A stretch of DNA of 64,000 bases from Nemertoderma westbladi (lineage: Eukaryota > Animalia > Xenacoelomorpha), in assembly GCA_032718475.1 (NCBI GenBank), contig JAUCBJ010003070.1, positions 124,001-188,000 on the forward strand, written 5' to 3'. The position numbers were made by a program, and so were the translations under genes. The notes beneath the pieces were generated by a model. The model was not told where the DNA came from. It worked only from the letters and a program-made list of their open reading frames with translations, and did not search any database. This document shows positions 17,344 through 61,231 of the stretch, one piece after another. Position 1 is the first letter of the stretch; the number at the start of each line of letters is the position of its first letter.

Positions 17344-18551
17344 TGTTCGCGCTTTTAAGACCTTTGGCAGTTTAACCCGCCAAATCTATATGTCTTCTAG
17401 GTTATAAATCTACTCCAGCCTATGACAAGTATTGAACACCTATAATAATTCTAACATTAGCCAAAGCCAGTCTGTGCGCGACCATTCACCCGCTGGATAT
17501 ACCCGGGAGACTGGATTTGGATGCTTTAATTTGATTGCGGTGCAGGCCTACCGTACTATTCGATTGATCGTTAATATATAATCTCTGACAAATATTATTC
17601 ACCTTTTGGGAAATATTAGCAGTTCCTTTAGGACGTGGCGCTCTATCTATTTAAACAGAGCTATGACTTACACTATACACAACGGTATGTCTTATAGATC
17701 ACCAAAGTGCATTCTTTAGGAAATGCTTTGTTACTCGGTCAAGCACACACAGACTATTGCACACAACTGCACACTGAATTGCCGATATTCACTGATTTTA
17801 ATCATATATAAAGAGAATAACAACCGACATTTGTAGGGCCTATTAAGTAGCATTGAACTCACTACAAACCACGATAATGTATGTCGCAAATTGTTATATG
17901 TAACCGGTCTCTCTAACCTTAGTGTATCAAGAAGATTGGGGTTTCGGATCGTTATCAATATTCTTCCCAATAATAATATGTAAACGAACGATACAATTAA
18001 CAACACAGTAAATAGCAGTAAATAATGCAAGTGTACTTAACCAAGTTGACCAAGGTGCAAAATCGAGGTGCTGTAGTCAGTACCGAGATAACAGTTTGAT
18101 GATCTTATAATTAAAGACGCTCTAATGTCAGAAACATTCCCCGGCCGGTGTTCAAGGCGTGGGGGAAACGTCAGCACTGAATCATGGGATTCTGCTGTAC
18201 AGTTTTTACACAAAGGGAAAATCTCTGATTGGTCGAACTGACGTGGACACAGCTGATAGATGTCGTCATTTGAGCTGAGCAGAACAAAGAACCAAGGCTC
18301 CGTGCAGAGGCTCCACGTGTACAGCTCAGCTATTAGCTGTCGTCTTAGTAACTACACTGTTCCAAGAGTATTTCGGCTTTTGCGTCATGGAATTGCGGAT
18401 TATGTCCGCTAAAGTACACATACAGAAGAAATTACTTTTATGTCCTCTAAAACACCAGTACAGTAAGGACACGGCCCTTTTATGCCTGGTAAACCAACTA
18501 CAGAGTACTTCACGGGGAAAATAACTGGCTAATTACGCAAAAGCCTTTACA
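17344..18551 (-). repeat. 3' LTR of element A (1208 bp)
   Basis: TGTTCGCGC...CTTTACA. Preceded on the minus strand by PPT-like TGGGAGCGG (18552-18560). Confidence 0.9.
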
Positions 18552-24761: not shown

Positions 24762-27030
24762 GTTTGTTTACACAGTTGAATGCCTACGGCTATAAATACA
24801 GCTAAAGTAAGTCTAGTAATTCAGTATCACTGTTAGCCTAATAATTAATTACCGATACTGCTGCTCAGTGTAGCGTGATATATATATAATATATTAGAAT
24901 ACCGGTATGCTTATAGTATATATATAAGTATTATTACAGACTAGATTTGTCACAGAGTACCGGTATATAATTTTAGCACAACTATATATAAATATATAAT
25001 AGGCGTATCGTGAATACCGTTATACAGCTGACACTTATAGTATATATAAGTATAATTATTACAGACTAGAATTAATTACAGAATACCGGTATGATTTCAG
25101 CCTAAATTTATAGAATAAATATAATAGGGGCCTAAGCCTATTGTAAATACCGGTATGTCAATTATTTTAAAAATAATTGAATTTCTGAATGTTAGGGGTT
25201 ACTTGGTTACTTTACTTACTCTATTACCGTTATTTGAGCAGCAGTCCAACTGATATTAAGACCTAAGTGTTGTATAACAGGCCTACTCTTTTATTAATAG
25301 ATTTAGTGGATTTATATGTACCCGTATGAGGGGTTTTGTTACAATATTGAAATAGATGTTATTATTTCTGGGAAGGAGTCACTGCACCGAAGCTGTACGC
25401 TCTCAGTGAAGTGCTACTTATTGGACACTAAAACAAATAATCCTACTTCCTAAGTTACTTATCTACGAATTACTTACGATACGGGTGAGATTAAATCTCT
25501 AATTAAACACAACAAAAAATATTACGTACGAAATTTTAGGGTAATTTTACAGGGAACTACAAACCAGTCTAACAAAGGGTTAGATTTTCTGGTTATTACA
25601 ACGGACAGGATACTACGGTATTTGAAAATAATAAGTAGTAGTAAATACACTGTGTTGTCCAGATAGGAAAATACCACCGTCTGACGACCTATAACCGTAT
25701 CGCTATAGGTACTACGTTATGTATCACGGAGTGTCCCTACCTAGAAGTTAATTACCGCGGTCTACCAGAACCAACGTGCCTATTAACCACTTTACAACAC
25801 AAATATACTGCCTACACACTAATTACCCTCGGAAAGCACTGTACACTAAACCCTAAATTAGGTACAAGTACTTATATAACAAATAATCGGTAGTTAAAAA
25901 TACTTGAACAGCTAAAAGAACCACGGTATCTGCTGGAGTGACCGGGGCACAAAATCACCAGTCTTTTCCTACGCCAAGCAGCCCGTGTAGTACCGGGGTT
26001 AATTTAACTATAACGGTATGTATAACAAGCACAATTACTGTAGGAATAAACTTGGGGACATGAATGTTGCGAATAATCGCATAAACTCTGAATAATAAAT
26101 ATTACGCTACCTGTACAGAATACTCAAACAAATATAAACCAAAACGCTGGCAGACTACCACCAAGCCTAAATAAACTACTGTATGTGCAGATTCCAAAAT
26201 GGTTAGTTAGTATGCGTTCTAACACGGTAGGACGACTTATTCTTTAAGAGGGGATTGACCTTACAGCTATGGCTGCCCCAACTTACTAACTGGCACTCTA
26301 TCGGACAAACTCTACACACGCAGCAATCTCTTCAGACCTAATAATAGCTAGACAACAATCCAGCCTACAAAATATCTGAGTAATAACTATTACGGTACCT
26401 GAACAGACCACACAAACAAACACAGGCCAAAACGCTGGCAGAATACTGTCAAGCCTAAATAAACTACAGTATGTGCAGATTCCAAAATGGTTAGTTAGTA
26501 TGCGTTCTAACACGGTAGTACGACTTATTCTTTAATAGGGGATTGACCTTACAGCTATGGCTGCCCCAACTTACTAACTGGCACTCTATCGGACAAACTC
26601 TACACACGCCGTAATCTCTCCAAACCCAACAACAATCCGACAACAGTCCGGCCTACAGTTATCTGAACAATCTGAGCAGACTTACACGTCTTCAGCTCAA
26701 TATTAACTTACTAGGAAATAAAACTGACAGAAATATACCTAAGTAAAATCCCAATAAAAACCAGGCGTCCCCGATTTAATATCGAGACCTACCGGTATAC
26801 AATAATCAAAATCGAATAATACTAATGTACTTATACTGGAAGTACCGGTTAGGACAGTTGGGCCTACGGACTTACAGAAGTGCCGGTTCTGGCAGTTGGA
26901 CCTACGGACCTAGAGCAGTACCGGTTCTGGCAGTTGGGCCTACTGACCTACAGAAGTACCGGTTCAGGTTTACCGGCCGACCGGTACTTTCAACTTTATT
27001 GCTTACTGCAATAAAGTCAATAACTGTTAT

Positions 27031-27887
27031 TATACGCGCTTTTGAAGACCTTTAGCAGTTTAACCTGCCAAAATTTATATGTCTTTTGGTTTATAAATAG
27101 ACTTTAGAAGATGACAAATATTTAATACCAATAAACACAACATTAGCAGAAGCCAGCCTAGTGCGCGTCCATTCACCCGCTGGATATACCCGGGAGACTG
27201 GATTCTGAGGGCTTAGATTATTATTGCAGTGTAAGCTTACTGTATTGTATTATTCGATTGATAGTTAATAATTAATTTCTGACTAATATTATTCACTTTC
27301 GGGAAATATTAACAGTTCCTTCAGGACGTGGCGCTCTATCTAGGTAAACAGAGATATGACTTATACTAATCACAACGGTAAGTCGGTAAGGCTTATGATT
27401 CAGGTGCTGTAGTCAGTACCGAGATAACAGTTTGATGATCTTATAATTAAAGACGCTCTAATGTCAGAAACATTCCCCGGCCGGTGTTCAAGGCGTGGGG
27501 GAAACGTCAGCACTGAATCATGGGATTCTGCTGTACAGTTTTTACACAAAGGGAAAATCTCTGATTGGTCGAACTGACGTGGACACAGCTGATAGATGTC
27601 GTCATTTGAGCTGAGCAGAACAAAGAACCAAGGCTCCGTGCAGAGGCTCCACGTGTACAGCTCAGCTATTAGCTGTCGTCTTAGTAACTACACTGTTCCA
27701 AGAGTATTTCGGCTTTTGCGTCATGGAATTGCGGATTATGTCCGCTAAAGTACACATACAGAAGAAATTACTTTTATGCCCTCTAAAACACCAGTACAGT
27801 AAGGACACGGCCCTTTTATGCCTGGTAAACCAACTACAGAGTACTTCACGGGGAAAATAACCGGCTAATTACGCAAAAGCCTTTACA
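27031..27887 (-). repeat. 5' LTR of element A (857 bp, chimeric relative to the 3' LTR)
   Basis: 27402-27887 matches 18066-18551 with two differences seen. 27031-27401 is clearly diverged from 17344-17700 and about 350 bp is missing. Confidence 0.88.
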
Positions 27888-38215: not shown

Positions 38216-38309
38216 GTGGAACAGTAACATTCGAATTTGTTCGTTGACGTTCGAATTTGTAAGACTCTGATTTAAGACCTGAGACACTCCTAAAGTCTCG
38301 AGTTTTAGG

Positions 38310-39910: not shown

Positions 39911-40000
39911 AATTATAAATGATATTGAAAAATATCTATATAGCGAGAAATATATATTAGCGATAGAACCTTCTCTGCAGTTGAACTTAAAGTTTTAAGC

Positions 40001-42286: not shown

Positions 42287-43631
42287 TGTTCGCGCTTTTG
42301 AAGACCTTTAGCAGTTTAACCTGCCAAAATTTATATGTCTTTTAGTTAATTAACACACCTTTAGCATACGACAATATTTTATGCTAATAAACAAAACATT
42401 AGCCGAAGCCAGCCCATGCGCGATCATTCACCCGATGGATACACCCGGGAGGCTGAATTCGGATGCTTAAATTTTATTATTGCAGTGTAAGGTTGCAGTG
42501 TAAACCTACTGTATTATTCGATTGATCGTTAATAATTAATTTCTGACAGATATTATTAGCTTTCGGGAAATATTAACAGTTCCTTTAGGACGTGGCGCTC
42601 TATCTATTTAAACAGAGCTAGGACTTATACTAAACGCAACGATAATGCTTATGATTAAAGTATAAGGCGCATTCTTTAGGAAATGCTTTGTTACCAATCA
42701 CAATCATGCACACGATTCTGCCGACCGTCAGTAAATTTGATCACACATAAAGAGAACAGCAATTGACTCATGTAGTGTCTGCTAAATAACATTAGATTCA
42801 ATACACACCACATTGATATAAATCGCAATTATTATGTATAGCCTGTCTCTCTAACCTGTAGTGTATCAAGAAAATTGGGAATTTTGGGTGATTTATCCGT
42901 ATTCTCCAAAGGGCAATATTTCATCAACAAATCGATACAATTAATAACTGACGGTAAATAACAGTACAAACAATATAATTAATAAGTAAAGTTCGGGAGA
43001 ATCATATGACTACCAGTGAGTTAGTTAGTTAGTGAGGTAACAGTTATACTTTCAATAATTTAAGCAGTTTTACTAGAGTTCTTCCCAAAAGCCGGTGTTA
43101 TGGCGAAAAATGGGAACACAACAACAGAATCATATGAAGAATCATATGACTACCAGTGAGTTAGTTAGTTAGTGAGGTAACAGTTATACTTTCAATAATT
43201 TAAGCAGTTTTACTAGAGTTCTTCCCAAAAGCCGGTGTTATGGCGAAAAATGGGAACACAACAACAGAATCATATGAAGAATCATATGACTACCACTCTA
43301 TACGAGGATACCAACTACCCTTATTCCCCGAAGCTCCCGTCCAACACAGAGGATGAGCATACAGATAGGAAATTCAGTTCAGTAGCTCTGGGATAGGTCG
43401 AAATCAACGCCAACTCAAATTCTATTGGCCGATACGGAACACAGGGCTGAGGCAACCTCCCTAAGCTGGTTGGCCGATCAAACAGAACCCAGATCCCTTC
43501 GCACAGCAAATCAGCCAATCAGCCGGTAGCTTGCACTATTCTAGCTAGATATCCCTTTTTAGAGTATTCAGCGACTGGGGGGAACTGGTTAGCAAAGCAA
43601 ACGAATCAGTTATCCCACAAAAGCTTTTACA
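42287..43631 (-). repeat. 3' LTR of element B
   Basis: Direct repeat of 59887-61231. Contains a 140-bp tandem duplication (~43000-43295). Confidence 0.97.
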
Positions 43632-43640
43632 CCGCTCCCA
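43632..43640 (-). promoter_or_regulatory. Polypurine tract
   Basis: Minus-strand TGGGAGCGG directly before the 3' LTR; identical in element A. Confidence 0.7.
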
Positions 43641-43709: not shown

Positions 43710-46700
43710 TTAGTCTTTTTTGCGCGGACGGCGTTTACGCAGTTTTTTAAAGCTAGCAAGAGTCTTTTTCTCTTTGGGGCGAGCCACTTTACGAGGAGGG
43801 CTATAACTCCTGGGTGAAGGGTGCAATATGATTGCATCAGAAGGTATGGGATTACGATCGGTATATCCGCCGGTCGAAGTGCCGGGTTGGTCGACTTCCA
43901 CTTCGGTGGGGAGGGGTTTAACGACCTTTAGAGCGCGTTTTAAGACGGCTGCTCTTACGGGTCCTTTAAGAGTCGTCTGAACGAGAGCCGTGGGTGGGCC
44001 ATAGGCAGTCAGAAACTTCCTTGGTTTAATGGTTCTTTCCAACTCGCGTTCGCGGGCTCGGTACTCGTAAGGCCGTCGATATACTTCCTGTAATTCGGGG
44101 TGTGAGTTGACAAATAAGTCTCCATAGGCAGGGTCTTGACGGATAAAGTTTATTAAGTTGTAAGAATAGATGTCACTCGGATTAATGCTCCTGAGAAATT
44201 TGCGTACATATTTGGTTGAAATACATTCTCCAATGCGCTTCAGTAGTTCATAACTTGATAGGCGTGATTTCTGCTCGACGGAGGCAAACAAATAAGGATG
44301 GAACGCATAAACTCCTTCGTAAGCGCGTCCAGGGTAATAGCGATGGCGTGAATCACAATGTAAATCAGCGTTCGCTTCCCAAGCTCTGATATAACGTAGT
44401 ACAATCATTTCATCTACGCTCTCTAAATCATGATTAAAGGGACAATCAAAGCTGGCGTGTCCTTTTAATTGACAATGATGGCATTGAGTCATAAATTGGG
44501 GGCAGACAGCAAAAATGTGCAAATTATTAAGCCGACAATATGCACAATAGATTTCCATCGACGGTTGCTCGTGGAAATAGGAACAGAGATCGTTGGTGTC
44601 CATAGACGTAATATGGTCTCTCGATGCGCACAGCCGACAACGTTGTCGAGAAACATAATTGGCATGGCGATAATCATACGCAGTAAGACACTGTGGACCT
44701 TGATACCATTCCAATATGTAGTCGCTATCGCTACTCCGAGACGTGGGGGGCTGAATCTCTTCAGATTCTAAACATATGGGTTCGTCTTCCCCTTGTATAG
44801 TTGAGGTAGGCATGGCCGTCTCCTCAAGTGGACCTACCGTCTGAATTTCCACGACAGAATAACCTGTGGGGATTCGAGGTCTTTGGATAACAGAGGAGTG
44901 CAGGTTTATTATACAAATGTCTTTGAAAATAGCAAATCCAGCGCTATCTAACTTCTCCGCAGCCGAGTCTCTTAAGCTGAGCTTGGTCAAAGCGCGGTCT
45001 TTGAATTGGCTATCCACGTTGCGAAACGGGGTTAAAAATCGTCGGAAACATTCAAAGCGGATGAATTTATTATGTTCATCTAGCTTAGCGAGTTTGGTCC
45101 CAAGTATTAATGGATGGGCGCGTATAGTACGACTGCACACATCGGCTAGCCAACCGGAAAGTGCGGTGTTTTCGAAGATCGTGTAGATAGCTAAGGAGGG
45201 GCGGAGTGGAACACTCATGAAGCTATACACGGCGCCAGGTGCGGTCAACGGTCCGTCAAAGTATAATCGAGAATAATGGTCTCCGTATACTTGTTGATAG
45301 TTGATGGGATTTCCGACCTTGAAATTCCATCCGTATTCCTGAAAAGCAAGATGTCCGATGGAAGTTCGTTGCACCTTTGTAATGTTGCTAGACGCATTAG
45401 CATACATGGTGCGAAAGAAACCTCGGCCTTCGGCCCAAGGAGCTATCAGCTGAGTATCCACGAAAGGATAGGGGATATTTTCCATATTCCGAAAGTCGTT
45501 TTGGAGATCTCCGTAAACAGCTGAGCCGATTTTAATGATTCTTTCGTTGAATAACATCTCGAGAACGGGCTGGGGTAACATCGATCCATCGATACCCATG
45601 GCCGGTTTGCGTTCGGTGTCAATGACGTAACGCTGCGCGAGTTCGAATTGTCCATGTCGGAGATTCTTTTGCGTTTCGGTGAGAGTTTCAAAGGAATAAT
45701 CGATCACGTCGGAACACGCTCGCGTAAACACGTGAGTGGAACCAGCTAATCCGCGTATGTGTATCATGCGCGTAGTTCCTAATTCTCCGATTGGAACGCT
45801 ACCTTCGTTATCGTAAGTAACAACGCCATACATCTCAATGATATTAAGAGTTTCATTCCACTCTTTGGTGGCGTTCTCGAGGGTCATCCCTACTGGATGC
45901 CACAAGGTGGCGCATTGATTAGCGTCAGGGAGATCACTATACTTCATGTATCGAGTGGTATACGTCTCCACATTTCCATATCTTTGTATTTTCTCCTCCT
46001 CGAATAATACGTCTAGATTCCAATGGACTAATCGAGTTTTAATAAATCCATCGAGATTATAAGGAGGTTCTGTATCCTTCTCTATTCGAGAAACGTTATA
46101 TGGTTTTCGAAATGAGTTTACCTTTACTAACTGATCCAGATGTTTTTGCAATTGTTCGAGTTCGACAATGTCCAGAGGATTTATTAGTGGTAGAAACTTT
46201 AAATTATGCGTCGGATCTTCTGGTTTTACCATATAATATTGAGTCAGATTAACGTAATAAGGGTGGTCTTTAATTCCATAAAAAGAGTTCTGTAAAGGTC
46301 TAGCGCGTATGTTGACATCGTGTACCATACGACGGACAAGATCCGCTCGATTGTCCGGAGGTTCAACGAGTATACCGTCAACTCGAGCGGCCTCGATTGG
46401 CGGACGCTGTAACATAGGAGCGTCAGCGATAAGATTTTGCGATCTTATGCTGATATCAACCGGTTGGGGTTGTATCTTTGCAAAAAGTTTGTCTCCGAAA
46501 TGCGGAACCATCGAGGGATGACGGACGGTTTTAGAGTAGAGATCGGTTATGAGTATCTGAGCTTCGGGTTGGGCTAAAGCGGCTTCTTCTCTCTCATCCA
46601 TTTCCGTATGTTTCTCCTCTAGTTGATTTTCCTCCGCTTGTTTCTGTAAGCGTTCTTCTAGAAACTCCTGTAGAGAATACGTACGTCCAAGCTCGATGTC

Positions 46701-47963
46701 CTCTTCGAGGTTTTGGATTTCTCTATCAAACTGCGGCAAGGCTAACTCTTTCACCGATTGGACCTGCTGCTGTAATTTACGTTTCTCTAGAAAATCCTGT
46801 GTTCCCTTTCCGATTTTCTGTCGGATGGCGTCTAAAGCGTTTCTGATGACACTCTCCTCGACTTCCGTGGCAGGTTGTATCGGAGTTAATCCTGGCCGAT
46901 TGTAAGGATTAAATGGCGATGTTAGATGCCCGCGTCCCAATCCGGTTAAATAGGATGGTCGAATATCTAACGAACCTACCGCTGGAACACCACCGATTAA
47001 CTGCTCGGGTAACACCAAATCTTTGAACAGTGAGTATAACTCGGGAGGATCAGTGATACTGTTAGGATCAAGAGTTTGAGGTCTCACTGGGGAATGAGGA
47101 GGCCTGACCGAGTATTCCGGAACTCTGATCATGGGTTTATTTAGCGATCGTTTTAGACGGGCGATCGTAGGTGATACGTCGAACAGGTTTCGCTCGAAAC
47201 TCCCGTAAGTATAACGCGTAAAACTGTGTTTAGCACAACGTCTCCGCGGATGTTTATGTCTTTCCGTTTGCTGGTTAGGTCTAGGGCATGAGTCACAATA
47301 ATACCAAAGACGTACGTCCTGCAGAGGAAACGCGGGTGATCGTTCTCCAGTTTTGCAATACTCTTCCATTTGTTCAAAGCTGTCCGGGACAACAGGCAGT
47401 GGACGATCTGCGGTAAGATACATCATGGTGAAATAGAGTCGTTTGAGTTCTACCATGGGATCGTGATGTATACCTTGAGGATATCGAGTCTCTAGGTTCT
47501 GTTGACTGGCAATATTGAGATAGGTTTCTCTCAAAAATTCCAAGTAGTCGTTGAAGTTGATGCGCTTATCGGGTTCTTCAACGTTTTCTCTGTCGAGTAG
47601 GTTGCGAATAGAGTTCTCGTGTTCTATTCTCGGTTTATCATTACGATTCCGCTGGGCATGATATTTAAATAAAACCATTTCCCTTTCGGTGTCTACATCT
47701 TCCGTATCATGTAAATCGGTAGGATGGCCGGTAGTTAAGAAGTCCATATACGTACCATTACGATTCGTATAGCGAGCGGTGAATTTTCTATAGTCCAATT
47801 CACGCGTAAGTTGTTCCTGGGACATCGGCGGTTCGATATAACGACCATCGTCCTCCGTAATAGTCGGATCGGCTTCACCGCGTATCAAGCTATCCACAAA
47901 CGCTTGTAAAGGTAGAGTATATCGCTCTCTAATACCAAGGTCATCTTCTATCAATTCCGTCAT
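43710..47963 (-). CDS. Accessory protein of element B (1417 aa): DEDDy-like 3'-5' exonuclease domain, Cys/His zinc knuckles, basic NLS-like tail
   Basis: Intact ATG ORF. GVVTYDNEG (ExoI-like), LPQPVLEMLFNERIIKIGSAVYGD (ExoII-like), FVDTQ, SIGHLA...YG..FK. Knuckles CRLCASRDH, CAYCRLNNLH..VC, CHHCQLKGHASFDC. Tail KKLRKRRPRKK. No signal peptide or TM helix seen. Confidence 0.8.
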   Translation of the reverse strand: MTELIEDDLGIRERYTLPLQAFVDSLIRGEADPTITEDDGRYIEPPMSQEQLTRELDYRKFTARYTNRNGTYMDFLTTGHPTDLHDTEDVDTEREMVLFKYHAQRNRNDKPRIEHENSIRNLLDRENVEEPDKRINFNDYLEFLRETYLNIASQQNLETRYPQGIHHDPMVELKRLYFTMMYLTADRPLPVVPDSFEQMEEYCKTGERSPAFPLQDVRLWYYCDSCPRPNQQTERHKHPRRRCAKHSFTRYTYGSFERNLFDVSPTIARLKRSLNKPMIRVPEYSVRPPHSPVRPQTLDPNSITDPPELYSLFKDLVLPEQLIGGVPAVGSLDIRPSYLTGLGRGHLTSPFNPYNRPGLTPIQPATEVEESVIRNALDAIRQKIGKGTQDFLEKRKLQQQVQSVKELALPQFDREIQNLEEDIELGRTYSLQEFLEERLQKQAEENQLEEKHTEMDEREEAALAQPEAQILITDLYSKTVRHPSMVPHFGDKLFAKIQPQPVDISIRSQNLIADAPMLQRPPIEAARVDGILVEPPDNRADLVRRMVHDVNIRARPLQNSFYGIKDHPYYVNLTQYYMVKPEDPTHNLKFLPLINPLDIVELEQLQKHLDQLVKVNSFRKPYNVSRIEKDTEPPYNLDGFIKTRLVHWNLDVLFEEEKIQRYGNVETYTTRYMKYSDLPDANQCATLWHPVGMTLENATKEWNETLNIIEMYGVVTYDNEGSVPIGELGTTRMIHIRGLAGSTHVFTRACSDVIDYSFETLTETQKNLRHGQFELAQRYVIDTERKPAMGIDGSMLPQPVLEMLFNERIIKIGSAVYGDLQNDFRNMENIPYPFVDTQLIAPWAEGRGFFRTMYANASSNITKVQRTSIGHLAFQEYGWNFKVGNPINYQQVYGDHYSRLYFDGPLTAPGAVYSFMSVPLRPSLAIYTIFENTALSGWLADVCSRTIRAHPLILGTKLAKLDEHNKFIRFECFRRFLTPFRNVDSQFKDRALTKLSLRDSAAEKLDSAGFAIFKDICIINLHSSVIQRPRIPTGYSVVEIQTVGPLEETAMPTSTIQGEDEPICLESEEIQPPTSRSSDSDYILEWYQGPQCLTAYDYRHANYVSRQRCRLCASRDHITSMDTNDLCSYFHEQPSMEIYCAYCRLNNLHIFAVCPQFMTQCHHCQLKGHASFDCPFNHDLESVDEMIVLRYIRAWEANADLHCDSRHRYYPGRAYEGVYAFHPYLFASVEQKSRLSSYELLKRIGECISTKYVRKFLRSINPSDIYSYNLINFIRQDPAYGDLFVNSHPELQEVYRRPYEYRARERELERTIKPRKFLTAYGPPTALVQTTLKGPVRAAVLKRALKVVKPLPTEVEVDQPGTSTGGYTDRNPIPSDAIILHPSPRSYSPPRKVARPKEKKTLASFKKLRKRRPRKKD

Positions 47964-49585
47964 ATCTGCTATCTGAGTTTATTAATATCAGTATGAGTTA
48001 ATATTTAGGCAAGCGGGCGTCGCTGCCTACTAGTCTTTGCCCCCGGACAGTGGGTTTCTCAGCGCCGATGTACCGTCGTCGCGGTGTTTACGCCAACATG
48101 TAGCAACAGCACGACAACGATAACCGGCACAAGTCCCACCACTGTCCGTCCCAAAGGCTTGAATCCACTTGAGGTTATCTCGGTAGAGTTAGGGCTACTT
48201 TACAATTGCGATTAGCTACTGTAAACACACTTTAGTAGTAACATTCACCTATAAACGCCCAAATTCCATACAATTGGACAATTACTTACTGCATACATGC
48301 AGGCCATTTGTCCGTTAATCAGTGTCTTCCAGAATGTCACGTTATTACTATGTATCCTTGGATACTAATAGTGCGCTATGTATACTCTTATGCTACGCAA
48401 TGGGGCAAGCTTTTTATTGTTCCTTTAACTTGCTTCTAATTCTAGCGTGGGTGTTGCCATGGTGACATTATGGAAAACTAGCGGTAGAATTAGAGTAATT
48501 CTCATGCATACAGATCTGGGATGCTATTTAATAGTAATTCTTTAATTGTCAATATCCTCTTTATGCATGATTTTATAAATTTTATCGGCTATTGACTATA
48601 TGTTGGAGATTCTCGCACTCTAGTACACTCAATATGAATCTCCGCTCCCATGATCTATTAATTACTGGAATTTTGGGAATGTTATAAATTGCACAAAATG
48701 ACAATTTATGAAATTCATTTGAATATGAATTTAAATTTATTCCCGTGAATTTTATTATTTGATGTTAAATTGACACAAATTTCATTCCAGAGCATATCTG
48801 GGGACTTAGGATCCTTAATTCTATAAAATAGTCCTTCTAAGAATATCGGTAAATACTGCGATATCTTAATTGACTAGAAATTTTAAAGGATCGGGATTTT
48901 ACAGATTTTAATAAATATTAAATTAATATTTAGGATGAGCACCGATTTATTCCAGAACTTGTCTGGGGACGTTAACCACTGATTCTAGAATTTGTCTTTC
49001 AAGTATATCGGTGGGTGCTACGATATCTTAATCGACTAGAATTACAGATGGTCAAAAAGTTTAACAGATTTATTTGCGATTTACGCTACTGTTAGAGGGA
49101 CATCACGCTACTATATGTATTATTTGTTATAAGGTAGAAGAGCAATATCGCACGAAGCAATGTCAGTGTGAAGAGGCAAGTCGTTTCCAAGGTCTACCCA
49201 GAGCTTGGTTTAGCCGAGACACGAGGATCTGAACTTTGCATTCCTAATACTCTGCCTACCAATAATACTTAAATATAGTAGTGGCTTTATTGTACTTTAA
49301 TAAGTACTGACATGTCATCTTACTATAGTCTCGCATTTATAATATAATACGGACAGTAAGGAAAGAGAAAATAATTATTTCTTGCCGTCGCACTAAATAT
49401 ATTATAGGTAATTAAATACGTAATAAACACTAATATATTGCACTAATTTACTAAATATTCTAAAATAACATTTTACTAAATAAAATTAAATAAAAACGAT
49501 TATAATAACGTACATAATAACATTTACATATAAAATGTAATAAAAATAGATAAAATAATATAGACATACACCCACTCCAGACGTA

Positions 49586-50210
49586 CTACGTTGAAGAGCC
49601 CCTAGATGTTTGAGGTATTAGGGAGGTGGTCGTGGGAAGGGTTTCTTGCCTTCCATAGTTTCCGGAGAGTTCCCGGTCTCTTTCCAGCAAACATAAACGA
49701 CCAACCGGGCGATTGAGTTGTTGCGTCTCAAAGATTATGCCGGGTTTCTTGAAGTTACGTCGCATGACGACGAGTTCTACCGAGCGCACTAGACCATCCT
49801 CCGAGATGTGCGTCTCGATGATACGACCTATCTGCCACCGTCTACGTGGAAGGTCCGGATCTACAATAAGGACCATGTCTCCGGCGCTGACATTTTCCTG
49901 CTGCGCAAACCACTTAGTTCGAAGTTGTAGCGTGGGCAGATAATGTTTCTCAAAATGGTCAGCGAAACGACGGGATAGCAACTGCATAAGCTGCCAAGTT
50001 CGACGACAGTATTCATCTCCATCGGCAATCTCGGATTGTGGGAGCATGGCTACAGGTTTCTTAAGTAGGAAGTGCGCGGGTGTTAGCGCTTCCAGGGAGT
50101 CGAGACTCGATGAGACTGGCATAAGCGGTCTCTCGTTAAGATAGGCAGCGATTTCTTCCATTAACGTCCGCAGAAGTTCGTCGGTGAGATATGCACGGCA
50201 CGGCACTATA
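49586..50210 (-). CDS. Integrase C-terminal part (DUF5641-like), frameshifted from the main polyprotein
   Basis: LTDELLRTLMEEIAAYLNERPL, ALTPAHFL, YLPTLQLRTKW, GDMVLI, WQIGRI, DGLVRSV, RPVGRLCLL. Confidence 0.9.
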
Positions 50211-53200
50211 AAGCGGTCTTGACACTTCGAATTAATCTCTCCCAACTTCCTCCCCACCAAGGGGCGTCGGCGGCGTTAAAGGTCCAGCTAGACGCCGTTA
50301 TCCGTAGCTGGTCGTCCACCTGTCTTTGATTCCAGTCCTTTACGTAAGCCTGAATTTCGTTGTTGGCACCAATGAAGTTCGTTCCCTTATCGGATCTCAT
50401 CGTGTTGCTAGTTCCGAAACGAGCGATCTGTCGTCGTAAACATAAGACGAAGCTGTTAGTAGATAGATCGTTCACCATATCGAGATGGATAGCTCTACAA
50501 GTCATGCAGACAAAGATTACACACCATCTCTTGACTATAGTTCTAGCACGATACACTTCAATAGGGCCAAATAAATCCACACCAGTATTAGTAAAGGGTG
50601 GTTCATAAAAGCTTACTCGTTCCCTAGGTAATTCTGCCTCTCGCTGTGTTAAAGGCCTACTGAATGCTTTCCTACAAGGTATGCAGTTCCTAAGAACTTG
50701 ATTCAGAGCTCTACGTGGTCTATGAAAATAATAGCGAGTTCGAATTTCGCTAAGAACTCGTTCTCTACCAGCATGATACAGTTTACTGTGAACATCTACA
50801 ATCATCTTGATTTGTACTTCAAGATTACTAATGAGTATAGGGAATTTAGTATCAAAGGATAATGGTGCGTTGGTAAGTCTTCCTCCAACACGTATTAACC
50901 CATCTATCATTGTGCTAGAGAAGCGATCCCTTAAGCGCATCTGCGGATTTCTCAATAACAGAAAATACCTATCGGAATCCTCATAGCATTGCAGGAGTCT
51001 CAGTAGCTGCTTATTAGTTTCTTCATGCTCCTGGTAACTGATCTTCTCCTTTAGAAACCGGTCTGATATCTTGTACTTAGGTAGATCTTTAATAACATGA
51101 ACTTGCGCAGATGTCACTGGAGCAGGATCACTAGTGGTCTGCGTCCTGGAGTAGTGATGGTGAAAACATCTCTTTAAGTATGTGACGGCTTTACAGAGAC
51201 GATTCCAGGAACTGTAATGATGCAGTGCTCTCTGCAGCAGGGGTGAGATTCCTTGCGAGACGTCTGGTATCCCAGATTTCCAATCTCTGTCTCTAATTTC
51301 CACAACAGACTTGTTTGTGGCGAGGGATTGTGGATCCAAAGTATCGTTTTCGGCAGTATGTAATACAGATAGATCGATTGTTGGTTTAAATAACTTCGAT
51401 TTACTTGTCCGAGTTTTGGGTTTGACTTTCTCCGCTCCCTTGGCTTGTCTAATCTCAGCCGTAGTAAGGTGAGGAGGCCATTCATCCTCTTCCTTGCTCA
51501 GGAAGTCGGGTCCACCCAACCAGTCAGGAGTATCTATCAGTTCCTGTGGAGTTGCTCCTCTGGAGGCGATGTCAGCTGGGTTAATCGTACCAGGGCAATG
51601 TCTCCATTGATCTATCGTTGTGCGACTAAGAATAATGGCCACTCTGTTAGTAACAAAGACGCTGAACTGACAGACTTCATTCGTTATATATTCCAACACA
51701 AGTAAAGCGTCGGTCCAATAAACAGTTTTCTCCAGTGGATAATCGATCTGTTCTGTTACATTCCGTCCGATAGCTGTAGCGTATAAAGCTGCTTTTAACT
51801 CTGCCCGAGGAACCTTCAGCTTGTTGTTAATCAATGCCTTAGAGGTAACCAAGGCAACTTTGATTCCATCCGGAGTTTCGACTCGCAGGTATGCTACTAT
51901 ACCTATTCCCATATCGCTGGCATCTCCGAATACATGGAGTTGATAGGAATATGTAGGGAGAACATGACCAAAATATGAACGGGAAATTATAAAGTTCTCG
52001 ATGGCAGGTAGCGAGTCCTCCCATTTCATCCATTTCTTTAATAGTTCTCCCTTGAGTGGATCGTCCCACGAGTGGTTTTCAAGCCACATTTGTTGTACTA
52101 AACTCCGAGCAATCAATATAACTGGGCTAATAAATCCCAAGGGATCGAAATAAGTGCTCAGAATACTTAAACAAATCCGTTTGGTCCGAACTGGATTATC
52201 TCGCTGTTTTAGCTGAAAAAACAGGATATCTCTTTCTGTGTCCCACTTCAAGCCAAGCGTCTTGGTTTCCGGAAGATCGTCATGTATTAAGTCGAGGTCT
52301 TTTGATCCCCGGTCTTCTACAGATATTGCTTCCAGAAACTCACGGGAGTTGCTGGTGAACTTCGTCAATCGAAATCCACCTCTTTTCAAACACTCAACCG
52401 TTCCTTTCGCGACATCAATGGCTTCTTTTACTGATGGAAGGGACTTTAAATTGTCGTCCATGTATATGTCTCGTTTGATGTTATCTATCACCTCTTTGGA
52501 GAAGGCGTCCCGGTTGTCATCCGCAGTGGTACGAACCACTGAGCAGGCGTTTGAAGGGCTTGATATAATCCCAAAAGCCTGGATGGTCATCCAGTACTCT
52601 ACCGGTTTCTGGTTGAGATCTCCTTCAGGCCACCACAGGAATCTTAGGCTGTCTCTATCACGATCCAACGCCTTGACTTCTAAGAACATTCCTTCTATAT
52701 CGGAGGCGAACGCGATGGAATATTGTCTTAATCTTAAAAGTATTCCCAATAAAGATTGGAGCAAGTTGGGTCCTGGTAACAACTCGGAATTGAGGGATTG
52801 GCCCATATATAGGGCGGAGCCATCAAATACGACCCGTACTTCATGGGGTTTACCGGGTTTGGGAACGTAATGATGTGTTAGATAATAAGTTCTTTCAGTT
52901 ATTGGAGTTCCTTCCGGTACTCGCTCCGCATATCCCTTTGTGATAAATTTCTTCAACTGAGTTTGGTACATTTCCTTAGCTGAAGCATTTGCCGTAAGAC
53001 GTCGATGTAATTGATTGATTCTTTTCTCAGCCAAAGGTCTGTTATTTATAAATCTAGGTTCCCGTTTTCGAAATGGTAGTCCGATTTCATATCTACCTTG
53101 ATCTTTTAAAAAACGTGTGGTTGTTTCCTGGATTTGCTTGGCTCTTTCTTCTTCTATCGACAGGGCTTTGTCGTATGAATTGGGTTCTACTAATTCTTGG

Positions 53201-56200
53201 GTAAAGAATCGTATGGCGAGTTCGTCCCGAGTTCTAGCGTTGTAGCGCTCTACCTCGTCATTAAGTTCGTCATTATAAATCATGGATTCCGTTGGGCGAA
53301 TCAGTTGACATAGGTTCGCTTGGTTTTTCCAAGTATGATTCTCTGTAAGTAGGTCAATTGTGTTCTCTTCTTCGAAGAGTTGGTAGATGTTGTCATTATC
53401 TGAGGAGTATGGTGTTCCCTCAGTTAGTTCGTCCACTTCACTGCTTTCCACTTCCCAATCGTTTACTTGATATATTTGTTCGTGTGGCATTCTCTCTTCG
53501 AGAGTTCTACGGGAAGGGCCAGTAAAGTACCAACCTACTCTAGTTCTTACCGCATAGGTTTGCAGTGGCTGTGGTTGAGCAGGCCGTTTCTCTAATGTTT
53601 CGAGCGCCTCGTGCGCGTTTTGGCCGATGAGTATTTGCACTCCAGGATAATCTGTCTGGAATCGAGGTATCTTAAGATGTTGGATGCTCTCATCTTCGTC
53701 CCAATTATAAAGGTCTGCTTGAGTAGTAGCAAAGTTCTTTATAGCCACCATTTTTACTGACCTTATACCTTGTGTTCCTAACTTATCCTGGGGGGTGGAC
53801 AACACACCTACATAGTAATCTGCCGTTAGGGTAGATTTCCAAACCTGCATAATTCCTGACATATTCAATTTAGTCCGGAACTTGGGTTGTCCAGCAAAGA
53901 TATCTTCGGCTAGTTCTTGATCGATGAATGTTCCTGTGCTGCCGGAGTCAAGGAGGGCGTTCACTATGTAGCTTTTGTTAAGACCGTGAACTCTTACTTG
54001 AACTACAGGAAATTCTCTGATTCCTACGTTGGAAGCTGGAGCTTTCCAAGATGGTTGTTTGGTGAAAGTAGTTGGGGGAAACTCATCGTTGATGTCCTTT
54101 TCGTAAGTAAGTGCTCGATACACTGCGGTATTTATTAGATAACAGGATTCATTGGCATCGGAGAATTCGTCAGTATAGAATCCTTCCATCTCAGACTCTT
54201 GATCAGTGTCGTTTACGTCACTGAATTGGACATGTAGTTCGGGCTCACTTACCTGACTCTGTCTGTCTCGTTCGAACTCACTGTGTAACAAGATGTTATG
54301 TTTCGCGCCACACTTTGCACACTTTATGTCGGAGTAACAGGTTCGCCGTTGATGTCCTGGTCTGAGGCAATTATAGCATAACCGCTTGTCCCATACGACT
54401 GTACATCTGTCTACAAGGGATTTCTTTAGAAATTCAGCACACGCACTCAAACAGTGGGTCCCGTCGCACAGCGCACAGTTAGGTTTTATGTTACTCACTT
54501 TACCTTGGGTAACTTGATGCACTCTCGTTTTTTCTTCGGGTTTTCTTCGGTGCATTCTGTTAGGAGACTGAGGAGGGGTCTTGGCAACCTGTTCTTTCCT
54601 ATCGTTGTTTCGAGCCTTGTATTTACTTACGTCCTTTGAGGTTTTGTCAACATAGTAAGATCGGTCTGTGTCTTTCCCACTGTCCTCTTCTTGGGAAGCT
54701 TGGCTTTCGCCGTCGTCAGTGTAACACACCGGTGTTACTCTTCTCCTAGAAGTGGGTTTCTCACTTACCTTATTTTCCGATGTTTTCTCTCTGGACTGCT
54801 TGATGAGTTGTAGTTTTACTTCACCATCTAAGAAAGACATGAGATCAGCCATGGTAGGACTTCGTCGTTGTTGTTCATTCATGTACATCACTTTCTTGTC
54901 CCAGCGTGTACATACTCCACCCTTTGGTAAAGTAGAGACTACGGCTCCAATAACCATGGAACTCTGATATTCATGCGACTTACCTAACCAGTCCAGTTGT
55001 CTACAGATCTCTTGAATCTCATCGGAAAACTCTATAATCCCGCTACTAAGGAAGTGTCGGGGGGCTACTAATTTTGCATACAAATACTTAGCTATGTTAT
55101 CCTTGTTACCATACCTGATGTTTAATGTATCCCAAACTTGTCTTAATCCTTCTGGATGTCCAATAAACTTTAACGCCATTAACTTGGGAGGTCCTTCCAA
55201 GCACTTGATGAGGAATCTAAGTTTCTCTCCGTTAGATAGTACAGAGTTCTGTATGCTATCTTTGTAATATTCGTTGAAAGGTAACCATTTCATCTCATCT
55301 CCATTGAATTTGACGATCTCTCCCACTTTGACCGCTTGGCGGGCTTCTGTTCTAGCCATCTGACGCGTAAAGCTTTCTTGGGCCATCGTGTTATTTAATA
55401 TCGAATTATCGGTATATAAATTTCTCGGATTATTATCAGGTCTATAGGGAATATTATTAGCAACAGGCGTATAATCACCCTTAATAGGGTTTGCTATAGG
55501 AGTTTCTACTTCACTAGCAGTATAGATGCGTGTAGGCTCCACACCTTGCGCATGTAGTACTTCAGACCTAACAGGTTGACACAATGTTACAGGGGGTATT
55601 GGTATGCCCTTTTGGATATTGACTAATTTGTCGCGTTCTAGTGCGATACTTTGCTGCACTTCTTGCAACTCTGCTCTACCTTCCCTCACTGTTCCCTTAA
55701 GTTGGTGGACAGTCTCCTGCATCTGTCCTAGCAGGAGATTCATCCCCCGCCGTCCCTCTTCTACCCACTCAACCGCCGAAGCGGGAGTCGCCAACATAGT
55801 AGCGGGCTGACGCGGGACGACGGGAGACAAATCTTTGATTTCTCTCTCTGCTATCCGGACAGGGATATTCTCTTGGACTGTTCCACCGGGTACAGGCAGT
55901 GTAGTACTATGTAAAGGGAATTTAGAGTTAAGCTCTGGAAGTATAGGGGTCTCTAACACAGAAGTGACTTTGGGAACGACAGGCCTAATTATTTCAGGCT
56001 CATCAACTATTGTAGGGAGTCTTTTGACCTTAATAATTTGGGCTGTAGGTTCTATACTACTCAAGTCTGTGCTAGCTAGCTGTCTTCTAACAGCTGGGGG
56101 CAAATCAGGCAATTTGCGACGGTAAGATGTTTTTCTACGCCTACTTAGATGAGATCTATTTCCTCCGCCTTCAGGATCGGTGGTCTCGCCTTCCTCCGAG

Positions 56201-57627
56201 GATGTGTATCCCTGGCGCTTGGGAGTAGATTTTCTCATCATCTGCATTTGATTAGCAGTAAACTGTTTATTTAGACTGTCTTGCGTCTCTTGCAGATTTT
56301 CCAACTCCAGTTGGATAGTCTCCTCAGAAGCTCTCCGTTCTGCTTCTGCCACTGCTGCTTTTCTTTCTGCTTCTGCTTCTGCCGCCTTTCTTTCGGCTTC
56401 TGCTTCTGCCGCTTTTCTTTCGGCTTCTGCTTCGGCCGCCGCTGCTGCTGCCACCTTTCTTTTCTCTATCCGTTCTTTCTTTACTTGTTCTTCTCGGACT
56501 CTAGTGAGGCGGAGTTTTTCATCAAATTCAGCTTGGTTTGCAGCTAACATTTCGGCATCGATTGAGTCCAACACAAGCTTGGTTCCTTCACTATTAGGGG
56601 AAAGTCCAGACAGCCGTCTCCTCAACTCTTCGTCTCCTAGGAATCGCTGATAGTCGGACAGATAAATGTCGATAGCGTCTCTAGTTCGCGGTTTCTCGGC
56701 GGTCTCTTCGCTTTCCACTTGAGAAAGGGTGACATCAGTTTGTTCTTCATAGGTTGATCTTTCAGCCAGCTGGGATTTCCACTGGGCCGTTTCCTGTACT
56801 TTGAGACCTACCCGATGTAACCAAGTTTTGACAGCAACCTGCAGCGACGTATCCTGTCTTCTTTTGGAAGTTTCTTCAAAGGCTGAGAGGATTAGTCGAA
56901 TGCGTAGGGTTCTTTCGCGTACTTGGTATAGCAGCTCTTCCTGCTCTTGAGGTCCTTGGGGTTGTCGAAACAGTTGTTCTTCCAATCGCTCCAAGGAGCC
57001 GAAGAATCCCTGCACATATCCTGCTGCCGACCTCTTCCAAACAGCTGGATCCATTGTATCTTTAGCCACTCCCATCCTGTGTATATCTTCCCAAGTAGCC
57101 TCGGACAGATCCAACGGGAGTCCGAGTCCGGGAAAGTTCCATTTTGACTCGACAATAGACATCAATTCTTCCCTGGCGTATCCCGCATAATTATCTTGGG
57201 TCGCTCGCTTATTTCTCGCCCAGTCGGCTTGATGTTCCTCCACCGCAATGAATATAGTAGTTAGCACTGCAGCAGGAAGGGTGAGAAGGGGGTCCGAGTA
57301 GACTGTAGCAGCCATCTGCACTCCGCGTTCGGGGGTCAGCTCTACAGTATCCGAACTACTGGAGCTATCGGGTCACTGGGAAGTAGGTTCTTGACCAAGA
57401 TGTTGCTGCGATAGGACAACTGCCTCTTGGTTCCGTTTGACCTGTGCTCGAGTGCCTATGATGGACCTATGGTGGACTAGCCTAGGGTCTGATACTACTG
57501 GAGGGATGACCTTTCTTGCAGTAGGAGGTGAGCTGAACTCCTTTCTTAATCGCTCCACACTCCTATCTGTGTCACAGATGGTTGTATCGATCAGACTGTC
57601 TGACAGGTTTTGCTGAGTGTCAGACAT
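50206..57627 (-). CDS. BEL/Pao Gag-Pol polyprotein (start MSDT at 57627; one in-frame TGA at 57373-57375; frameshift near 50210)
   Basis: Gag core and three knuckles. PR LLDSGS. RT RVVFDGS, DIEGMF, YMDD. RNase H LHVFGDAS, PRAELKAA, WTDA. IN H-H-C-C, GVDLFGP, SDKGTNF, WERLIRSVK. The 84-aa ORF 57373-57627 is in frame with 50206-57321. Confidence 0.93.
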
Positions 57628-59886
57628 GTTTATCTATACAGTTGAATGTCTACTACTATAGTTTCAGTTAAAGCAAGTCTAGTAATTCAGTATGACCGCA
57701 AGCCTAGCGATTTATTACCGATACCGTTACTCGGTGTAATGTGATATATATACAATATATTAGAATACCGGTATGCTTATAGTATATATATAAGTATTAT
57801 TACAGACTAGCTTTGTCACACAGTACCGGTATATAATTTTAGCACAAATATATATAAATATATAATAGGCCTATCGTGAATACCGGTATACAGCTTACAC
57901 TTATAGTATATATAAGTATAATTATGAACTAGAATTAATTACAGAATACCGGTATGATTTCAGCTCAAATTTATAGAAATAAATATAATAAGCCTATGGT
58001 AAATACCGGTATGTCAATTATTTTTAGAATAATTGAATTTCTGAATATTTTAGGGTTACTTGGTTACTTTAACTTACTTTATTACCGTTATTTAAGCAGT
58101 AGTCCAACTGATATTGAGACCTAGTTGTTGTATGGCAGGCCTACTATTTATAAATCGTTTGAGTTGATTTATAATATATATATACCCGTTTAAAATGGGT
58201 TTTGTCTATATTTGAAATAAATGTTATTATTCCTGGGGTTCACTACACAGAAGCTGTGCGCTCTCAGTGAAGTGCTATTTATGGGACACTAAAACAGATA
58301 ATTCTAATTTACCTAAGTTACTTAATACTACAAATTACTTACGATACGGGTGAGATTAATTTCTCTAATTAAAATACAACAAAAATATTACGTACGAAAT
58401 TTTTTAGGGTAATTTTACAGGAAGTCTACAAACCAGCCTAACAAAGGGTTAGATTTCTGGTTATTACAACGGACAGGGTACTACGGTATTTGAAATAATA
58501 AGTAGCAGTAAATATATTGCACTGTCCAGATAGGAAAATACCACCGCCTGACGACCTATAACCGTATCGCTATAGGTACTACGTTATGTATCACGGAGTG
58601 TTCCTACCCAGAAGTTAATAGAGCTAACGAATGTGCCTATCAACCACTTTACAACACAAATATACTGCCTACACACTAATTACTTCGGAAAGCACTGTAC
58701 ACTAAACCCTAAATTAGGTACAAGTACCGGTACAACAAATAATCAGTAGTTAAATATACTTGAACAGTTAAAAGAACCACGGCATCTGCTGGAGTGACCA
58801 GAGCACAAAGTCACCAGTCTTGTCCTACGCCAAGCAGCCCGTGTAGTACCGGGGTTAATTTAACTATAACGGTATGTATAACAAGCACAATTACTGTAGG
58901 AATAAACTTGGGGACATGAATGTTGCGAATAATCGCATAAACTCTGAATAATAAATATTACGCTACCCGTACAGAATACTCAAACAAAATACAAACCAAA
59001 CGCTGGCAGACTACCACCAAGCCTAAATAAACTACCGTACGTGTAGATTCTGAAATGGTTAGTTAGTATGCGTTCTAACACGGTAGTACGACTTATTCTT
59101 TAAGAGGGGATTGACCTTACAGCATATGGCTGCCCCAACTTACTAACGGCACTTTATCAGACAAACTCCACACACACAGCAATCTCTTCAGACCTAATAA
59201 TAGCTAGACAACAATCCAGCCTACAAAATATCTGAGTAATAACTATTACGGTACCTGAACAGACCACACAAACAAACACAGGCTAAAACGCTGGCAGACT
59301 ACGATCAAGCCTAAATAAACTACAGTATATGCAGATTCTGAAATAGTTAGTTAGTATGCGTTCTAACACGGTAGTACGACTTATTCTTTAAGAGGGGATT
59401 GACCTTACAGCATATGGCTGCCCCAACTTACTAACGGCACTTTATCAGACAAACTCTACACACGCCGTAATCTCTCCAAACCCAACAACAGTCAGACAGC
59501 AGCTCAGCCTACAATTATCTGAACAATCTGAGCAGACTTACACGTCTTCAGCTCAATATTAACTTACTAGGAAATAAAACCGACAGAAATAAGTAAAATC
59601 TCAATAAAAACCAGGGCTGCAGTCCCTGATTAAATACTAAGACCTACCGGTATACAATAATCAAATTCGAATAATACTAATGTACTTATACAGCAGTACC
59701 GGTTAGGACAGTTGGGCCTACAGACCTACAGAAGTACCGGTTCCGGCAGTTGGACCTACGGACCTACAGCAGTACCGGTTCTGGCAGTTGGGCCTACTGA
59801 CCTACAGAAGTACCGTTTCAGGTTTACCGGTCACTACGGTATTTTGCAACCTTATTGCTTACTGCAATAAGATCTATAACTGTTAC
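57628..59886 (-). other. ~2.26-kb non-coding 5' leader with ~290-bp and ~40-bp tandem duplications
   Basis: Duplications at ~58995-59520 and 59690-59830. Conserved in element A (24762-27030). Confidence 0.8.
59875..59886 (-). promoter_or_regulatory. Non-canonical primer-binding position (GTAACAGTTATA), complementary to LTR sites at 60637-60648 and 60777-60788
   Basis: No TGG after the 5' LTR. Perfect 12-bp inverted match inside the LTR. Confidence 0.6.
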
Positions 59887-61231
59887 TGTTCGCGCTTTTG
59901 AAGACCTTTAGCAGTTTAACCTGCCAAAATTTATATGTCTTTTAGTTAATTAACACACCTTTAGCATACGACAATATTTTATGCTAATAAACAAAACATT
60001 AGCCGAAGCCAGCCCATGCGCGATCATTCACCCGATGGATACACCCGGGAGGCTGAATTCGGATGCTTAAATTTTATTATTGCAGTGTAAGGTTGCAGTG
60101 TAAACCTACTGTATTATTCGATTGATCGTTAATAATTAATTTCTGACAGATATTATTAGCTTTCGGGAAATATTAACAGTTCCTTTAGGACGTGGCGCTC
60201 TATCTATTTAAACAGAGCTAGGACTTATACTAAACGCAACGATAATGCTTATGATTAAAGTATAAGGCGCATTCTTTAGGAAATGCTTTGTTACCAATCA
60301 CAATCATGCACACGATTCTGCCGACCGTCAGTAAATTTGATCACACATAAAGAGAACAGCAATTGACTCATGTAGTGTCTGCTAAATAACATTAGATTCA
60401 ATACACACCACATTGATATAAATCGCAATTGTTATGTATAGCCTGTCTCTCTAACCTGTAGTGTATCAAGAAAATTGGGAATTTTGGGTGATTTATCCGT
60501 ATTCTCCAAAGGGCAATATTTCATCAACAAATCGATACAATTAGTAACTGACGGTAAATAACAGTACAAACAATATAATTAATAAGTAAAGTTCGGGAGA
60601 ATCATATGACTACCAGTGAGTTAGTTAGTTAGTGAGGTAACAGTTATACTTTCAATAATTTAAGCAGTTTTACTAGAGTTCTTCCCAAAAGCCGGTGTTA
60701 TGGCGAAAAATGGGAACACAACAACAGAATCATATGAAGAATCATATGACTACCAGTGAGTTAGTTAGTTAGTGAGGTAACAGTTATACTTTCAATAATT
60801 TAAGCAGTTTTACTAGAGTTCTTCCCAAAAGCCGGTGTTATGGCGAAAAATGGGAACACAACAACAGAATCATATGAAGAATCATATGACTACCACTCTA
60901 TACGAGGATACCAACTACCCTTATTCCCCGAAGCTCCTGTCCAACACAGAGGATGAGCATACAGATAGGAAATTCAGTTCAGTAGCTCTGGGATAGGTCG
61001 AAATCAACGCCAACTCAAATTCTATTGGCCGATACGGAACACAGGGCTGAGGCAACCTCCCTAAGCTGGTTGGCCGATCGAACAGAACCCAGATCCCTTC
61101 GCACAGCAAATCAGCCAATCAGCCGGTAGCTTGCACTATTCTAGCTAGATATCCCTTTTTAGAGTATTCAGCGACTGGGGGGAACTGGTTAGCAAAGCAA
61201 ACGAATCAGTTATCCCACAAAAGCTTTTACA
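59887..61231 (-). repeat. 5' LTR of element B
   Basis: Direct repeat of 42287-43631. Confidence 0.97.

Follow-up and report, generated by a model that had tools for sequence, protein, structure and literature searches.

The window considered here is a stretch of 64,000 nucleotides from the genome of Nemertoderma westbladi (Xenacoelomorpha; assembly GCA_032718475.1, contig JAUCBJ010003070.1, positions 124,001 to 188,000 of the forward strand), and all coordinates given for it are positions within this stretch. It contains two copies of one long terminal repeat (LTR) retrotransposon family, elements A and B, which lie on the minus strand together with all of their features described below. Element B, a BEL/Pao retrotransposon, has beside its 5' LTR a primer-binding site (PBS) that is exactly complementary to a segment of its own LTR, and it probably primes reverse transcription with its own RNA.

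Element B, a Young BEL/Pao Retrotransposon

Element B (61231-42287) spans 18,945 bp and is bounded by a 5' LTR of 1345 bp with TG..CA ends (59887..61231) and by the paired 3' LTR (42287..43631). The two LTRs differ at 4 positions over 1345 nt, and the element is young. A 5-bp target duplication, ATAGT, flanks it at 61232-61236 and 42282-42286, and a short polypurine tract, identical in element A, adjoins the 3' LTR (43632..43639). The gag-pol frame (50206..57372, 2388 amino acids) includes DUF1759, CCHC motifs, a protease, a reverse transcriptase (RT) with the YMDD motif, the acidic motifs of RNase H, Peptidase_A17 and an integrase zinc finger. It stops within the integrase core, and the rest of the integrase region (DUF5641) lies in a different frame at 49586..50275. 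The RT and RNase H motifs are intact. PF03564, PF05380, PF17921 and PF18701 score above cut-off in the proteins of B, with the order protease, RT, RNase H, integrase read from motifs, and PF05380 is present in all of the best 120 of 1026 homologues. By its Pao-type Gag-Pol domains, TG..CA LTRs, short target duplication and polypurine tract, element B belongs to the BEL/Pao superfamily.

The best database relatives of B share at most 45% identity with it over RT/RNase H, and the named ones among the matches listed come mostly from echinoderms and cnidarians, with additional matches from a fish, a clam and a pseudoscorpion. In a tree of 48 rows, made by a quick method and including no named BEL/Pao reference elements, B forms a long branch in an open fork, and it is assigned to no named clade such as Sinbad/Sailor, Suzu or Tas. 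The LTR DNA pattern of the element has no match in metagenome contigs, and no relative was found in viral contigs. The sole AATAAA of the B LTR (60073..60078) is the likely polyadenylation signal, which would give a U5 of about 170 nt. The long 5' leader of both elements contains a tandem duplication of 288 bp (58943-59522 in B, 26087-26666 in A).

The Primer-Binding Site of Element B and Its Complement in the LTR

A primer with the CCA end of a tRNA needs TGG in the PBS. In A, in B and in the 15 relatives described below, the 8 nt that follow the LTR contain no TGG, so that the original prediction was right in finding no TGG-type PBS in either copy. The PBS of B, 12 nt at offset 0 from the 5' LTR (59875..59886), has its exact complement within that LTR at 60637..60648 and again, as the upstream copy in a 140-bp tandem duplication (60598-60895), at 60777..60788; coordinates and letters of this perfect complementarity agree with those first reported. 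The counterparts of the two candidate self-primers in the 3' LTR end at 43037 and 43177. Pairing halts at the end of the LTR, again as claimed, since the next pair would oppose a C of the site to an A of the LTR. Outside the LTR copies the 18.9-kb element has no further complement of the PBS longer than 7 nt, and a weaker second site of 8 nt lies near 60558-60565 (-7.7).

From base composition, 2.1e-4 matches of this kind are expected, and among Markov-simulated LTRs the match of B was equalled in 1 of 4000 and in 5 of 4000. When internal positions of B served as mock PBSs, 2 of 16,230 attained 12 nt. The match of B is thus beyond chance, at an overall level of 2e-4 to 1e-3. A published rule for predicted self-primers requires that complementarity to the LTR begin 0-5 bp beyond the 5' LTR and extend over 10 bp or more (PMC6317226; this source, like PMC3601003, PMC4600332 and PMC7175516, is cited from excerpts throughout), and B has 12 bp at offset 0.

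Variation in the family was followed in contigs of four runs (X1, X3, X4, and X5), which are DNA-type or uncertain and whose depth is not a copy number. A G/A variant at PBS position 1 occurs in 33 contigs of X1, 14 of X3, 3 of X4 and 0 of X5, and is family-wide. No substitution is listed at PBS positions 2-9 in any of the four runs, and positions 10-13 carry indels. None of the contig pieces listed covers both the LTR site and the PBS. The LTR end alternates in the family between AACA and TACA (window 59890; 39, 20, 2, and 1 contigs). Contig cover is mostly lower in U3 and drops at 60588-60651, to 8,856 in X1 against 286,640 in the preceding bin and to zero in X4 and X5; neither observation was used as evidence.

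The constancy of positions 2-9 would suit a host RNA as primer, for example a tRNA cut in the anticodon loop, as in some Ty1/copia elements; the LTR match would then be a by-product or act as a regulatory mask. At position 1, the terminal U of a fixed primer could pair with G as well as with A. The anticodon loop of tRNA-Asn, in what we take to be its sequence, would match PBS positions 2-7 over about 6 bp. Half-tRNA primers are known, although the excerpted plant survey reports them only for Ty1/copia (PMC6317226). Priming by a host RNA nevertheless seems unlikely, because at least six PBS sequences occur among the relatives of B, each matched by the LTR of its own element, and one host RNA cannot explain them all. 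Nothing points to an element-encoded tRNA as primer: no tRNA gene was found in the window or in 79 related loci, and element B has no match in Rfam.

Distant Relatives Pair across a Predicted Splice Junction

The relatives come from one scan that yielded 79 loci with 36-45% identity over RT/RNase H. Thirteen of these were inspected for LTR ends and 9 were kept with both ends fixed, which left 8 after removal of one near-copy (L003, L008, L029, L030, L033, L034, L036, and L039). Of the four excluded, L023 and L041 have repeats other than LTRs, L043 has a truncated 3' LTR, and L014 has an end that is not fixed by the repeat, although by eye it too has an 11-nt match. The 8 end-fixed relatives carry 6 different PBS sequences, all without TGG, and each of the 8 pairs over 10-15 nt with its own LTR across a predicted GTAAG..YAG junction. 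Without splicing, own-LTR matches reach 6-7 nt in seven of them and 11 nt in L030. In L033, TATA stands at both LTR ends (7390-7393) beside an intact 5-bp duplication.

Seven further relatives with inferred LTR ends all pair over 10-15 nt, six via a junction and one, L012, directly. The complement in L012 is intron-less, as in B, and comprises 10 nt at offset 0 (806-815 and 1003-1012, the LTR end being inferred). An initiator-like word stands just 5' of this site. When PBSs and LTRs were compared between loci (L049, L010, L031, and L043 were omitted as near-copies), own-LTR matches measured 9-15 nt and foreign pairs reached at least 10 nt in 14 of 272 cases, of which 12 fall among four loci that share one PBS core and one is A against B. 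A blind scan for such junctions succeeded in 11 of 29 sense regions and in 1 of 29 antisense controls. The PBS begins with GT in B and 13 of 15 relatives, with AT in A and one relative, and with AG in one relative.

The predicted LTR introns of the relatives are T-rich and 71-164 nt long, and the junction that the complement spans is found 156-322 nt into the LTR. In 5 of the 8 end-fixed relatives the donor is preceded by TATA-like words at a distance of 93-165 nt. The primer in these elements is therefore likely to be internal to the RNA. The LTR of B has no GTRAG donor, and a splice-built primer in B or A was rejected: the best junction using any GT gives 11 nt in B and 8-9 nt in A, not above the direct match. 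Words resembling branch points follow the primer site directly in both elements, CTAAC repeats in B (60615-60636) and CTGAC in A (27410-27420), the consensus being as we assume it to be, and no good acceptor or donor stands alongside them. The comparison suggests that B carries an intron-less form of the primer that most sampled relatives would build across an LTR junction. If an intron was lost, this could have come about simply, through the copying of a 3' LTR that had been spliced.

Element A and the Comparison of the Two Copies

Element A (27887-17344) has its own 5-bp target duplication, CTGCT. A gag-protease frame is present (21564..24767), but deletions have cost the element its RT and integrase, the larger part of RNase H and the exonuclease region of the cargo, leaving it non-autonomous. 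Its 5' LTR (27031..27887) is chimeric and ends in TATA (27031-27034). Down to 27402 it is 99.6% identical to the 3' LTR (17344..18551); beyond that point it is about 350 nt shorter and 84.5% identical. This shortened U5 (27031-27402) is nearer to B (87.9%) than to the 3' LTR of A (84.5%). An A-type U3 joined to a B-like U5 is what the copying of two co-packaged RNAs, or a conversion at a later time, could produce. The idea that the breakpoint at 27402 marks the start of R was rejected, as it shows a short microhomology and not a GT..AG joint.

The PBS of A pairs over 9 nt (27022..27030) with a candidate self-primer at 27424..27432, which recurs in the 3' LTR at 18088-18096. A match of this length is expected 0.007 times by chance and arose in 31 of 4000 and 53 of 4000 simulations. 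The change from G-C to A-T at PBS position 1 between B and A, offered in the original prediction as covariation, is real. The surrounding LTR had been described as otherwise diverged, which is apt for the 47 nt downstream of the site (49% identity, z 1.1, the level of shuffled sequence) and less so for the 48 nt upstream, where weak homology persists (56%, z 3.0). The site window itself stands at 75% (z 5.0). Between A and B the site forms a conserved island, and the match of A lies at the homologous place.

This position bears on whether the matches are chance products, or remnants of a local inverted duplication, that have no function. The region is AT-rich, the 9 nt of A alone would arise by chance in about 1% of cases, and a scan of many LTR elements is bound to yield some such matches. 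Against this stand the low chance level of the B match taken alone, the place of the A match inside the conserved island and the recurrence of the same relation in 8 of 8 end-fixed relatives, and we regard a functionless match as very improbable.

RNA Folding and Promoter-Like Words

Folding predicts that the PBS of B is paired with the downstream copy of the site with a probability of 0.98 for RNAs starting at 60650 and 60660, and with the upstream copy at 0.92 for a start at 60790 and 0.64 for 60875. For A the corresponding values are 0.93-0.94 for starts at 27436 and 27450, 0.52 for 27515 and 0.26 for 27600. A predicted leader hairpin of 10 bp (59849..59873, -10.1 kcal/mol) adjoins the PBS of B and is retained in A (26993-27017), where changes on the two arms preserve it. 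The prediction for A is that the hairpin occupies PBS positions 11-13 and leaves a primer helix of 9 bp, so that competition with the hairpin may give a partial account of the shorter pairing of A. A longer pairing of the A site with PBS positions 13-20 (best with the PBS of B, -16.4 kcal/mol) was discarded; it competes with the conserved hairpin and is absent from the folded models.

Words matching what we take to be promoter consensus sequences occur in both LTRs. In A these are CCAAT at 27568, a TATA-like word at 27546 and an initiator-like TCAGT at 27516 (27512..27568), which, read as motifs, would have transcription begin some 80 nt upstream of the site. A second possibility places the site in U3, on the upstream side of the start and perhaps within the promoter. 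It would then pair from the 3' LTR copy only, circularising the RNA or aiding strand transfer, with something else as the primer. The B site itself opens with a TATA-like word, and an initiator-like TCA follows it 31 nt later at 60617. A TATA-like word lies just upstream of the A site, and the LTRs of A and B become clearly homologous only from about 70 nt downstream of the site. Other promoter-like words are present about 111-114 nt upstream of the site in A and B, among them a TATA-like word 114 nt upstream of the first site of B, and the words thus appear to point both ways on whether the site is transcribed. Placing the site in U3 would leave the element without any primer, and would not explain why pairing stops precisely where the LTR ends, an arrangement that has the geometry of a primer. 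The relatives also count against it, because in them the complement becomes whole only when the two sides of the predicted junction are joined and must therefore be transcribed. We judge a U3 site improbable.

The Cargo and Other Features of the Window

Downstream of pol, element B carries a cargo open reading frame of 1422 amino acids (43710..47978) with a region resembling exonucleases of the RNase D/PF01612 kind (about amino acids 715-925, 45204-45836) and two CCHC knuckles (amino acids 1145-1179). Its similarity to TIGR01388 (E 0.0016) is far below cut-off. The cargo has no Pfam exonuclease match and no match in two indexed protein searches, sequence searches of the PDB yielded no exonuclease, and a single-sequence structure model was unusable at a predicted local distance difference test (pLDDT) score of 31.6. 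Among 1.84 billion representatives its only relatives are P0121 and P0122, both with the exonuclease-plus-CCHC layout and both leaning to PF01612. The acidic residues D723, E725 and D824 are present, and Ser922 occupies the place of the expected Exo III Asp, under what we take to be the residue roles of the DEDDy motif; the protein may bind RNA rather than cut it. None of the 79 related loci matches the cargo, including the LTR-to-LTR elements that bear the priming signature, and the signature is therefore independent of it. A role of the cargo nuclease in priming, raised speculatively in the original prediction, is not supported: the cargo is unlikely to be needed for priming, and trimming of the primer by its exonuclease-like region seems doubtful.

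Elsewhere in the window, a minus-strand frame at 4629-7193 has a fibrinogen C-terminal domain (PF00147, E 2e-42) behind a long tandem repeat of 12-bp units and is probably an exon of a host gene. Fragments of other RT elements lie at 8190-10778, 29175-30356, 32922-33617 and 39944-41764, with PF00078 in four frames, and are likely of non-LTR types. An array of palindromic units of about 74 bp each, self-matching on both strands, is found at 11255-11634. Two pairs of dispersed repeats have internal tandem subunits, one inverted (37007-39076 and 61391-62851, 92-97% alike) and one direct (323-1680 and 34191-35550, 94.6% alike).

A Proposed Mechanism of Self-Priming

The best reading of element B is a Tf1-like self-priming in an intron-less form, and we consider it likely. 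An LTR-derived stretch of the element's own RNA would pair with the PBS and prime minus-strand DNA synthesis, the primer helix being predicted by folding to form beside the leader hairpin. By analogy with Tf1, the RNA would be cleaved immediately 3' of the paired segment, with the RNase H of the element as the probable nuclease, and the new 3' OH would be extended through U5 and R, with strand transfer through the R sequence downstream of the cut. As the relatives suggest, the primer may be internal, tens of nt from the cap, and not the first 11 nt of the transcript. The original prediction had placed the RNA start at or within a few nt of the site. A start at that point is not required, given the junction-spanning complement well inside the LTR of the relatives, and a start upstream of the site is compatible with self-priming because the primer of the relatives is likely internal.

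Several observations weigh against this reading. The primer of B is a candidate read from its sequence, its start site is putative, and the cut is modelled on that of Tf1. In A the pairing of 9 nt is below the 10-nt rule and PBS positions 10-12 are unpaired, so that over the 12-bp helix one compensated difference stands against three uncompensated ones; a G-U pair could bridge the compensated terminal pair; the PBS of A pairs over 10 nt with the site of B and over 9 nt with its own; and the chimeric 5' LTR of A weakens any argument from two copies. The predicted fold depends on the assumed start, with helix probabilities of 0.92-0.98 within about 20 nt of the site, 0.52-0.64 at 80-90 nt upstream and 0-0.26 for three others, including 0.0 in B for starts at 60700 and 60950. 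The TATA-like word that opens the B site would, if used with the initiator-like TCA, exclude the site from the transcript. Among the relatives, the seven with inferred ends are less independent, since the match helped to place the LTR end, and the predicted introns rest on motifs and not on RNA. The long branch of B in the quick tree makes it an extrapolation to extend the mechanism of these relatives to B.

What stands of the original prediction is its core, tRNA-independent self-priming, as the best explanation, backed by the pairing of the relatives with their own LTRs. Its covariation argument is reduced to one genuine G-C to A-T change, and its details on the start site and the cargo proved weaker or wrong. 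The relatives support self-priming far better than does the pair of A and B.

Relation to Known Systems and Implications

In Tf1 of Schizosaccharomyces pombe the RNA's first 11 bases anneal to the PBS and the cut by RNase H falls between bases 11 and 12 (PMC7175516). Self-priming has been demonstrated for Tf1, described or predicted for the related Ty3/gypsy groups Tf1/sushi and Tcn1, proposed for Tj1 of S. japonicus, and predicted for TAR, Houba and Osr-1 (PMC4600332, PMC6317226, PMC7175516). Like B, the Tf1/Tf2, Tj1, Tf1/sushi and Tcn1 elements have a PBS that adjoins the 5' LTR, has no tRNA complement and shows a perfect own-LTR match of 11-12 nt, comparable to the 12 nt of B. The Tf1/sushi group is of Ty3/gypsy chromovirus descent, whereas B is BEL/Pao by its domains; B would thus work like Tf1 without being a member of its group. 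It also differs in the loop of about 750 nt between site and PBS, and the excerpts of PMC7175516, PMC4600332 and PMC6317226 describe nothing for Tf1 like the complement across a predicted intron in the relatives of B. For the TAR lineage, including Houba and Osr-1, self-priming was predicted from the same kind of LTR-PBS complementarity; these are plant Ty1/copia elements, and no BEL/Pao element appears in the excerpted text (PMC6317226).

The International Committee on Taxonomy of Viruses (ICTV) describes the Belpaoviridae as having an 18-nt PBS for the 3' end of tRNA-Arg or tRNA-Gly, LTRs of 0.2-1.2 kb and genomes of 4.2-10 kb, and calls their replication "poorly understood" (PMC8742986). 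With this family (Semotivirus, including Tas) B has in common a gag-pol with protease, RT, RNase H and integrase in that order, LTRs and a polypurine tract (PMC8742986). It departs from the description in its lack of a tRNA PBS, its 1345-bp LTRs, its length of 18,945 bp and the exonuclease-like cargo where env may sit, and it lies outside the ICTV description of tRNA-primed BEL/Pao elements. Nematode BEL elements of the Cer7 type reportedly carry an RNase D-like exonuclease downstream of pol, an element-encoded tRNA-like primer and env; B, compared with them, has no tRNA-like sequence and no env family match.

In the literature searched, which reached few subscription papers or Repbase reports, no BEL/Pao self-priming was found and nothing on a primer built across an LTR splice junction. 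Within their main texts, to which the search was confined, four BEL/Pao surveys contain none of the primer-site and tRNA terms looked for (PMC3118150, PMC554778, PMC6238403, PMC8556966), and no link between BEL/Pao and self-priming appears in the excerpts of PMC3601003, PMC5443660, PMC5445492, PMC8220671, PMC3286476, PMC9094657 and PMC13524379.

We lean, by a modest degree, toward a wider view in which a broad animal BEL/Pao lineage gave up tRNA priming. Most of its members would build the primer by splicing an LTR intron, tying their replication to host splicing, and the present 19-kb family would be an intron-less form whose primer is cut out of the interior of the 5' RNA. The self-priming prediction is precise to the single nucleotide. 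Annotation that demands a TGG PBS would overlook such elements. If direct and splice-built primers occur side by side among related elements, one could trace how the intron was gained or lost. An ancestral status of self-priming has been suggested (PMC3601003). If BEL/Pao self-priming holds true, tRNA-free lineages would exist in all three LTR superfamilies, which bears on whether self-priming is ancestral or has evolved repeatedly.

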